Position numbers and translations under genes: made by a program. Below, one piece after another: positions 58,442 through 59,974 of a DNA stretch of 64,000 bases; position 1 is the stretch's first letter; each line of letters begins with the position of its first letter. The notes beneath the pieces are model-generated. The model made no database searches. It was not told where the DNA came from and was given only the letters and a program-made list of their open reading frames with translations. Origin of the DNA: Mobula hypostoma (taxonomy: Eukaryota); the NCBI RefSeq assembly GCF_963921235.1, contig NC_086097.1, positions 15,376,001 through 15,440,000 of the forward strand. Direction: 5' to 3'.

Positions 58442-58600
58442 TTAACCACTGAATTCCTCCAGGTTTTGTGTGGATCCAGATTTCCGGAACCTGCGATCTC
58501 TAGTGTCTCCATTTTGTTAGTCAGCTGTCCTGATCACTCAGTTAGTTTATAGAATGTTATCTTGGTTTGAGCATTAGAACATACAGAGCAGGTGTATAAT

Positions 58601-59074
58601 CAGTCAGTCAGTCAGTGGGTGCCGTCCCAAATCCGGGGTTGGTGGCTATGCACCTCCATCTTCTTCGATCTTGCAACAGCACCGAGTACAGCCTCTCCTC
58701 CAGTTTGTTCTCACTGGCCGCCTTAGCACCACCCGCTGCCGCCCCCACCGAACTTGAGCCCAAGGCCGTGTCAGCCTCCAGCCGCGGCCGCTTCTTCGAG
58801 CTCGGCCGTTCCTTAGGCGGAGGCCTTGGGCAGGTCCAGGCCCACGGTGCAGTGCCCAAGTTCATTATATCTCTTCTGACTAAGTGCATAGCATACGATT
58901 CATAGATACGTGGTGAGGCTTTAATCTCTTCCACGGAAGATGGCCGTTGGCTCACAAGGAGCTCATCCACCCTTTGTCAGGTCTTGTATTTTTTTAGTCC
59001 TGCTGGGTGTCCTCACACCCTCCTCACCAGCCCAAGTCACCGACCAGTCGACCACGGCCCCCAGCCGAGCGCCG
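58601..59074 (-). mobile_element. Bipartite RTE-derived retroelement carrying a captured host-gene fragment
   Basis: 11-bp TSD aggtgtataat (58590-58600 and 59075-59085); (ACTG)n 3' tail; RTE-like ORF start (..RRDIMNLGT) and C-terminus (QDRRRWR). Confidence 0.8.
58676..58851 (-). pseudogene. ZFTRAF1: Permuted fragment of ZFTRAF1/CYHR1 exon 1
   Basis: KKRPRLE...[12 protein letters not shown] and, in another frame upstream of it, CTVGLDLPKAS. From memory, the vertebrate protein reads [25 protein letters not shown]. Confidence 0.75.
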
Positions 59075-59974
59075 AGGTGTATAATAGGGGCGTACAATTG
59101 ACATTGTCCTTGCTATTGTTGCCCCCAAGTCCTGATGAAAGATCTCGGCCTGAACCGTCAACTGTTTATCCCTCTCCATGGAGGCTGCCTGGCTTGTGAG
59201 TTGTTCCATTATTTTGTGTGCGTTGCTTGTGGATTCAAGGTCAGCTTTAGGACTTGGTCATTGAATGCAGGCTAAGGTTGCAGTGCAGATTTCACAAAGC
59301 ACTAGGTTGTTGGATTTGATATTTTTGACATGTGATGTTAAATTATGATGTTGTCTACACTGTTGCTACAGTTAAATCTTGTGGTGCTTTGTAGAAAAAG
59401 AGGAAATTATTCTGATTCCTTGCCCAACTTTATTGCCCTCAGAATGATTTAATGCTTATTTACACTCCGGTAACTTGGCTGCAACATAATTCACTGCATT
59501 AAGTGACTTCATTCATTAGATCTACAGCATGCCAATAAAAAGTACAACTGTAATTTATAGAAAATAGATTAGAAAGAGAACAAAAAACTGCTGTGGCTAT
59601 TGACCATATGATGAAACCTTCCAGCAATGGCAAAGCTATTACAGTATCATGTGGGTGATTCAAGTACTAGGAACCATTAAAAGTGCATTTTGTTATGTCT
59701 AAACAATTCATGATAACCCATTGAAGGTAGTCCATTTGCAACTTGCCCACAGCATCTTTACATGTAAAATTAATGTTGCTCTTGCCTGTGAGGCCTACAT
59801 TAAAGTATAACTGTCCATTCAAATCTCCAAAATTGTTTGTGCCCTTTAATATCTTTTACCATCCACAATCTGGGATAATATATAGAAAGTTAGCCCATAA
59901 TTTTAACTAATTAAATGTCTTATTAAACCAAAAGAACTCACAGAAAGAAAAGCTGCATTTTTGCTGTGTAAAGA

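Follow-up and report, generated by a model that had tools for sequence, protein, structure and literature searches.

A circularly permuted piece of the first ZFTRAF1 coding exon as a fixed module of a SINE-like retroposon family in Mobula hypostoma

The stretch of DNA analyzed here (64,000 nucleotides of contig NC_086097.1 of Mobula hypostoma, positions 15,376,001 to 15,440,000, below called the window) carries on its minus strand a short coding fragment of the gene ZFTRAF1, also named CYHR1, with its two parts in exchanged order: CTVGLDLPKAS(A) is read first, then KERPSSKKRPRLE..., whereas the ZFTRAF1 proteins of both sawfish and skate have the two parts in colinear order. This raises the questions of how a piece of a coding exon came to be circularly permuted, and whether that happened at this locus. 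The first-pass annotation took the fragment for a microDNA-like circle of genomic DNA that had recombined into an older element here, leaving a direct repeat of TGCA at its ends.

The longer of the two peptides matches ZFTRAF1 of sawfish with E 2.2e-7 and 67% identity in a search against 5.8 billion proteins (33/49 in BLASTP), and the ZFTRAF1 proteins of sawfish and skate are its sole two matches among 202 candidates. A search with the sawfish protein against the 3.48-Gb assembly of the ray itself finds one ZFTRAF1 gene, on contig C5, with four coding exons that show 86–98% identity to the sawfish protein over residues 1–407. Exon 1 lies on the minus strand of the extracted locus L024; its coding sequence reads ...GAGCTGGAGGAAGGGCCGAGC...CTGTACTCGGTGCTGTGCTGCACCGTGTGCCTGGACCTGCCCAAGGCCTCCGTCTACCAG and is followed by the donor, ..GTCTACCAG|gtacag, while exon 2 begins cag|TGCACGAAT, encoding CTN. 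Compared with this exon by blastn, the element in the window gives two HSPs in swapped order: element positions 278–415 correspond to L024 1691→1554 (127/138, 92% identity, E 1e-54), and positions 239–277 to L024 1552→1514 (37/39, 95% identity, E 2e-13). The E-values rule out chance similarity. Directly before the second HSP, 23 of the 29 aligned copies of the family described below have G, identical to parent base 1553; the window copy has A. With this base included, the module consists of parent 1553→1514 followed by 1691→1554, i.e., 40 nt + 138 nt = 178 nt.

In window coordinates, the 40-nt part (segment B, 58814–58853; delimited by blastn and by the 29-copy alignment) reads on the minus strand (G>A)CTGCACCGTGGGCCTGGACCTGCCCAAGGCCTCCGCCTA, with the translation CTVGLDLPKAS, or (C)CTV(C>G)LDLPKAS+V when the edges are included. 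The 138-nt part (segment A, 58676–58813, minus strand) reads AGGAACGGCCGAGC...CTGTACTCGGTGCTGT and is translated as KERPSSKKRPRLE..., beginning (K)E(R)PSSKKRPRLE.... In the parent gene, segment B follows immediately after segment A, the last base of A being 1554 and the first of B 1553; the module hence makes one exact turn with zero bases lost or repeated, and its opening point lies inside the first Cys codon, T|GC. The earlier reading of a ZFTRAF1 fragment with the downstream piece ahead of the upstream one is thus borne out, as the two swapped HSPs abut in the parent; its bounds need a shift of 3–4 nt, since the internal junction had been placed at 58817/58818 and the length given as 176 bp, while the permuted module itself holds with the junction at 58814|58813 and a length of 178 nt. 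The parent exon, which matches the module, has the segments neither in the permuted order nor duplicated (blastn and the sequence of L024). A circular permutation of exactly one turn is what a circular, or topologically circular, intermediate predicts, and to this extent the circle-like origin proposed earlier stands.

The parental 178-nt stretch has 71.3% G+C and 20 CpG (CpG observed/expected 0.91), in agreement with the earlier attribution to a GC-rich CpG-island exon, here the first coding exon. Because the order is colinear in the sawfish and skate proteins, the direction of transfer was from gene to element; transfer from the element to the gene is ruled out by the same colinear orthologues. 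The remaining parts of the element (head, body, and tail) have no match in ~29 kb around the four ZFTRAF1 exons, where only the two module matches are seen; these ~29 kb are part of a ~180-kb locus, with most of the 91-kb intron 1 outside them.

The module is embedded in a longer insertion, a 474-bp copy at 58601–59074 (minus strand). It is enclosed by an 11-bp target-site duplication, AGGTGTATAAT, at 58590–58600 on the 3' side and at 59075–59085 on the 5' side. In an exact-motif count this 11-mer has exactly two matches in the 64-kb window, with a chance expectation of 0.02, and 0 of 100 shuffles gave two. Inside the duplication, the copy consists of a 3' tail module (58601–58675; 20-copy alignment) with an (ACTG)n/(CTGA)n microsatellite end at 58601–58616, the ZFTRAF1 module (58676–58853), and the body with a 5'-truncated head (58854–59074; copy alignments). 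The copy begins at approximately position 81 of a full-length element of ~571 nt, has an internal A-run at 58989–58995, and carries a private 23-bp deletion near 59030. It was the whole 474-bp copy, module included, that came by retrotransposition with its 11-bp duplication, and the idea of a separate integration event at this locus has to be given up.

Relatives of this copy are numerous. A 241-nt query over both outer junctions of the module gives 1157 first-look candidates in the ray's own genome; the best 40 scored of the 1157 are all 91–100% identical to the query and cover at least 1–235 or 4–241. The search with the sawfish protein gives 1234 first-look candidates, and among the best 102 scored, 98 matches cover only ZFTRAF1 residues ~43–113, the other four being the real exons on C5. 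The family size is at least ~1,200 copies in the 3.5-Gb genome. Alignment of 20 copies with their flanks gives a full-length element of ~570 nt, in which a head rich in G+C and containing an inverted repeat is followed in the 3' direction by an internal A-run, a body of ~140 nt, the ZFTRAF1 module, and a 61–75-nt tail. This tail is common to all copies, and the homology ends in a simple repeat. Five of 27 copies are full length and the rest are 5'-truncated at many different points (starts at reference positions 1, 2, 20–25, 48, 70, 78, 81, 92–108, 138–154, and 191–193); exact target-site duplications of 8–13 bp are seen at 12 of the 27 by a crude exact-match test, and all 27 end in (CTGA)n.

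Target-site duplications, variable 5' truncation, and a common 3' end constitute the anatomy of LINE-mediated retrotransposition. Segment 58601–59074 and its relatives are hence assigned, from insertion anatomy only, to LINE-dependent, SINE-like retroposons. We call them SINE-like rather than SINEs because no tRNA, 7SL, or 5S head was recognized and no partner LINE was found: ARAGORN gives no tRNA genes in the window stretch and eight further loci; Rfam gives no match at E≤1 except two chance miRNA matches; and in exact-motif tests for a LINE with the same tail, the tail motifs outside the family gave one truncated copy and zero matches, respectively. Neither was a second family with this tail seen among other (CTGA)n ends in 194 kb of genome sequence. 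The one match, to a tail start preceded by anything but CGC, is the copy in question, truncated to its last 61 nt. The family may already be catalogued under an existing name.

Two features of the head, both noted by eye, may be mentioned here. The full-length copies L003, L008, and L016 have a ~23-nt inverted repeat in the first ~125 nt (GGTCGCCGGCCGCTCGACCATGG and CCGTGGTCGAGTGGTCGGCGAC, ~20/23 complementary), and the head carries a box-A-like TGGTCGAGTGG with a 10/11 match; no known small-RNA family matched. On the minus strand of L017, near position 1041, a different, tRNA-derived repeat in antisense (..GGATTCGAACTCGGGACC..) ends beside CTGACTGA by coincidence.

If the module had been inserted into an older element, copies of that element with and without it might coexist. 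The same permuted module is found at the same place in 29/29 copies examined, and 39 further genomic matches span both outer junctions; the 29 aligned copies represent 28 loci and were drawn from the best-scoring matches, hence old subfamilies are under-sampled. In the ray's own genome, exact flanks of 12 nt and 13 nt at a spacing of 170–195 are found at 276 places (133 + 143), with 0 in controls, while the same flanks at a spacing of 0–12, as in an empty copy, are found at 0 places. The 29 places with spacing 13–169 all still open with segment B and are thus internal deletions. Shorter flanks at spacing 0–30 give one unrelated match, compared to seven in controls. The end of the body followed by anything but the module has one match, a copy with a 1-nt deletion; the start of the body preceded by non-A has 10 matches, eight of them in a palindromic, MITE-like repeat unrelated to the element and the other two in rearranged copies. 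Hence, the clean empty host element expected by the first-pass annotation is not seen, with 0 empty against 276 filled copies in this genome. Such tests need 18–25 intact bases and would not pick up a family whose divergence is much above ~15–20%; other species could have an empty ancestor, or one may have diverged too far for exact motifs.

The palindromic MITE-like repeat is itself abundant, being present at L032, L033, L035–L040, and in the window at ~59130–59200, just 5' of the element copy, with arms ..GCAGGCCAGGCAGCATCT..CAGTCGAC... Its center and the start of the retroposon body share 17 nt (CAAGACCTGACAAAGGG), either by chance or as another mosaic piece. Among deletion copies, a 13-nt deletion over the internal junction (..GCCCAAGG|AAGGGC..) is common to at least five (L043, L044, L045, L052, and C1:63981246–63981440); it sits between two AAGG repeats and may mark a small subfamily or recurrent slippage.

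The junctions of the module show the following. The TGCA repeats described earlier are indeed present in the window copy, at 58672–58675 and 58848–58851; however, they are not ancestral. The 3' outer junction is GCTGT|CGCAAG in 18 of 29 copies, with CACAAG in three and TGCAAG in eight, the window copy among them. As CGCA is seen in 18/29 copies, the TGCA/TGCA repeat represents CpG decay in a minority and not an integration footprint. The ancestral flanks are ..TTGGGC | module | CGCAAGATCG.., and at most GC or CGC is common to them and the module ends. The internal junction is G(T>C)CTA|AGGAAGGG, with GCCTA|AGGAA in the element where the parental bases would give GTCTA|AGGAA. It is 4 nt short of the exon-1 donor on one side and mid-exon on the other, in accordance with the previous statement that it does not look like a splice junction; the outer junctions are not splice sites either. 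In the parent, GTCTA precedes CCAG and AGGAAG comes after CTGG, hence the microhomology at the circle junction, predicted earlier, amounts to 0–1 nt and that prediction fails.

All 29 copies align end to end, 1(2)–177(178), with the permuted parent. Identity to it is 90.4–96.6% for 28 copies and 72.5% for one degraded copy, and the mean pairwise identity is 92.2% among 20 copies (190 pairs). The majority sequence of the 29 copies and the present-day exon disagree at just 3 of 178 positions (37 T>C, 85 T>A, and 150 G>A). These majority differences, together with the identities of the copies, indicate that the source was the ZFTRAF1 gene of the ray's own lineage and that amplification came afterwards; since then the copies have decayed, mainly at CpG sites. 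A few copies (L009, C1:85131719, C1:88857402, and C1:126812497) still have the T of the parent at module position 37 (..CCGTCTAAGG..), a non-CpG site; these may mark the oldest subfamily, predating the change of the master to C.

Taken together, segment 58601–59074 is almost certainly an ordinary 5'-truncated insertion of a SINE-like retroposon, with a constitutive module that was captured once, by the founder or master of the family, and received here ready-made. Given that the exact-motif tests revealed no empty relative, the family probably arose as a multi-part chimera that already contained the module, rather than by insertion of the module into an older SINE. The exact one-turn closure implies a single passage, by copying or joining, around the 178-nt stretch. 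Three paths give such closure by construction, namely an RNA circle, a linear RNA with one jump, and a DNA circle opened once; with two unrelated template jumps, or a window over a tandem duplication, it would arise only by coincidence, at about 1 in 100 or more.

As for the way of capture, the module lies between the body and the 61–75-nt tail, with its coding sense and the tail on the same strand. LINE-primed cDNA synthesis starts at the tail, and template jumps are known there. The sense orientation, the place immediately upstream of the tail, and the absence of empty relatives lean towards an RNA-level chimeric birth; sense orientation in itself is only two-to-one evidence. In such a founding event, a LINE reverse transcriptase primed on the tail RNA would have jumped to a sense RNA derived from ZFTRAF1 and passed once round it. 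The template may have been a small covalent RNA circle, copied once round with a stop at the 5' end of the enzyme's own cDNA; or it may have been a linear ZFTRAF1 RNA, with one intramolecular jump from 1691 to 1514 and a collision with the enzyme's own cDNA:RNA duplex at 1554. After one turn, a further jump would have carried the enzyme to the RNA from which the body and head derive. In the predicted fold, the two junction points of the parent RNA are not paired with each other (z –0.77), which counts against the linear version. We give the RNA-level origin of the permuted piece, whether circular or linear with a jump, an even chance; the explanation as a whole, single founder capture plus the RNA-level route, we regard as probable. 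The template switching that the first-pass annotation had kept as its alternative is thus favored by the orientation and the site upstream of the tail, with no decision between RNA and DNA: the module contains neither an exon–exon junction nor an intron, and its sequence suits both routes.

That the founder took up a covalently closed, non-splice circle of ~178 nt from a CpG-island coding exon, be it microDNA or RNA circularized by a ligase, is a tentative suggestion somewhat short of an even chance. Its DNA version, in which a microDNA-like circle of ~178 bp, excised from the CpG-island exon of ZFTRAF1 and cut open at a single point, became part of the founder or master DNA, which was then amplified, appears unlikely, although it is the strongest rival of the RNA route. 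MicroDNAs are ~100–400 bp long, GC-rich, and derived from gene 5' ends, exons, or CpG islands, and short direct repeats are typical of their circle junctions. The putative circle resembles them in its 178-bp length, about one nucleosome, its G+C and CpG content, and its origin in a 5' coding exon; the exact single turn in 29 copies and the non-splice nature of both the circle junction and the outer junctions are also as expected of a DNA circle. It differs from them in that the junction GTCTA|AGGAAG is without such microhomology, and in that the insert is seen in the founder of a retroposon family and not at a unique site. Moreover, a simple crossover within the GC common to both sides would leave GCTGT-GC-AAG, whereas the family has GCTGT-CGC-AAG, with one base extra; neither an empty master nor empty relatives were found by exact motifs in the ray's own genome; and the insert is in sense orientation immediately 5' of the tail, a place at which jumps between templates are expected. 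Circle-mediated germline translocations are discussed in print, with cattle color-sidedness as an example of such rearrangement (PMC12235870; also 10.1101/2022.06.22.497135).

A canonical back-spliced circRNA, a special case of the RNA route, is improbable. Here the true exon-1 donor would have been joined to a cryptic acceptor, AG|GAAGGG, the circle reverse-transcribed into the founder, and 2 nt then lost. The predicted junction ...GTCTACCAG|GAAGGG (GTCTACCAGGAAGGG) differs from the observed ...G(T/C)CTA--AG GAAGGG by two C's only, and the module would become circRNA-derived in the sense of Dong et al. (2016, PMC4897178). However, an extra 2-nt deletion is needed, while direct reading needs no indel; the CC is kept in none of the 29 aligned copies, nor in the listed exact-flank copies; and the proposed acceptor is preceded by a purine-rich stretch, without a pyrimidine tract.

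An origin without any circle, by tandem duplication of the exon piece in the source copy, or by a later duplication with trimming that left a B–A fragment, is very improbable. Tandem duplications are common, and a window over a duplication boundary does read B–A; but the fragment measures precisely one unit, and its two ends are neighbors in the parent (1554|1553), which a random window would achieve by the coincidence estimated above, the parent exon is not duplicated, and no copy with more than one unit is seen among 305 exact-flank copies with spacings of 0 to 195 nt. Recombination of a microDNA circle into a pre-existing element at the window locus itself by 4-bp TGCA microhomology has TGCA at both outer junctions of this copy in its favor and is scarcely credible, given a target-site duplication that encloses the whole element, an identical module in 29/29 copies, 276 filled and 0 empty places genome-wide, and CGCA as the majority junction. 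An assembly artefact is excluded by the target-site duplication and hundreds of concordant copies.

Single founder capture followed by amplification has several partial parallels. The retroposon SVA-F1 carries exon 1 of MAST2, and the gibbon LAVA, PVA, and FVA are composite retroposons with a captured host exon. They resemble the present family in that a non-autonomous element spreads a GC-rich first-exon piece of the host in hundreds to thousands of copies; their captures are, however, colinear and explained by splicing or transduction, whereas the ZFTRAF1 piece is permuted, internal to the exon, and without splice-site boundaries. To our knowledge, a circularly permuted one-turn middle piece is not a described feature of template-switch chimeras. 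In other respects chimeric retrocopies of the U6–L1 type are close: unrelated RNA pieces are joined in the same orientation, the 3' end of the retroelement coming last, target-site duplications flank the whole, and such chimeras can found non-autonomous families. Related reports deal with double template jumps in LINE reverse transcription and tripartite chimeras (PMC2104539), with SINE birth by template switching (PMC5729268), and with LINE-1 recombination with diverse RNAs (10.1101/2025.02.02.635956). Here, unlike in those cases, the partner LINE was not found. Pseudogenes derived from circRNA, e.g., the 33 copies derived from mouse circRFWD2 and flanked by LTR sequences, are similar in having a permuted gene fragment in many copies, a link to retroelements, and an order taken to reflect reverse transcription round a circle; jumps on open structured RNAs can give the same permuted pattern (Dong et al., 2016, PMC4897178). 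In contrast to their exon–exon back-splice junction, the junction of the ZFTRAF1 module is within a single first exon and is not a back-splice; and while those pseudogenes are free-standing, the ZFTRAF1 piece is a fixed module of a LINE-mobilized short element with >1,000 copies. Among the papers listed in a literature search under the name CYHR1, none links it to a SINE or retroposon. The ray's family brings together traits of all these systems, with a non-splice, one-turn permuted coding-exon piece as a fixed module of a >1,000-copy short retroposon.

The family is a case from nature showing that a circularly permuted part of a coding exon can be present in a retroposon family at its birth, and the one-turn closure leaves as mechanisms either a circular template or a reverse transcriptase that collides with its own product. 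If the founder did absorb a closed circle of ~178 nt, the family would be a fossil in the germline, multiplied over a thousand-fold, of a class of small circles otherwise known only from biochemical surveys of cells, and such circles could enter heritable DNA via a retroposon. The three diagnostic bases between the founder and today's gene could, with sister genomes, date the capture; they could also show whether ZFTRAF1 still makes such a circle.

There are also consequences for annotation. More than 1,000 copies of a 178-nt sequence that is 90–97% identical to ZFTRAF1 coding sequence, many of them in a frame of ~122 codons, will give rise to false "ZFTRAF1-like" gene calls, and circRNA callers will be confused in this and related genomes; for any read over the B→A junction, the repeat is a far likelier source than a true circle. 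In the window this stop-free frame spans 58601–58970 on the minus strand, running from the body through the module, in the frame of segment A, to a TGA in the tail; by eye count it is kept in roughly 4/10 of 98 listed copies, about what neutral decay of G+C-rich sequence would leave.
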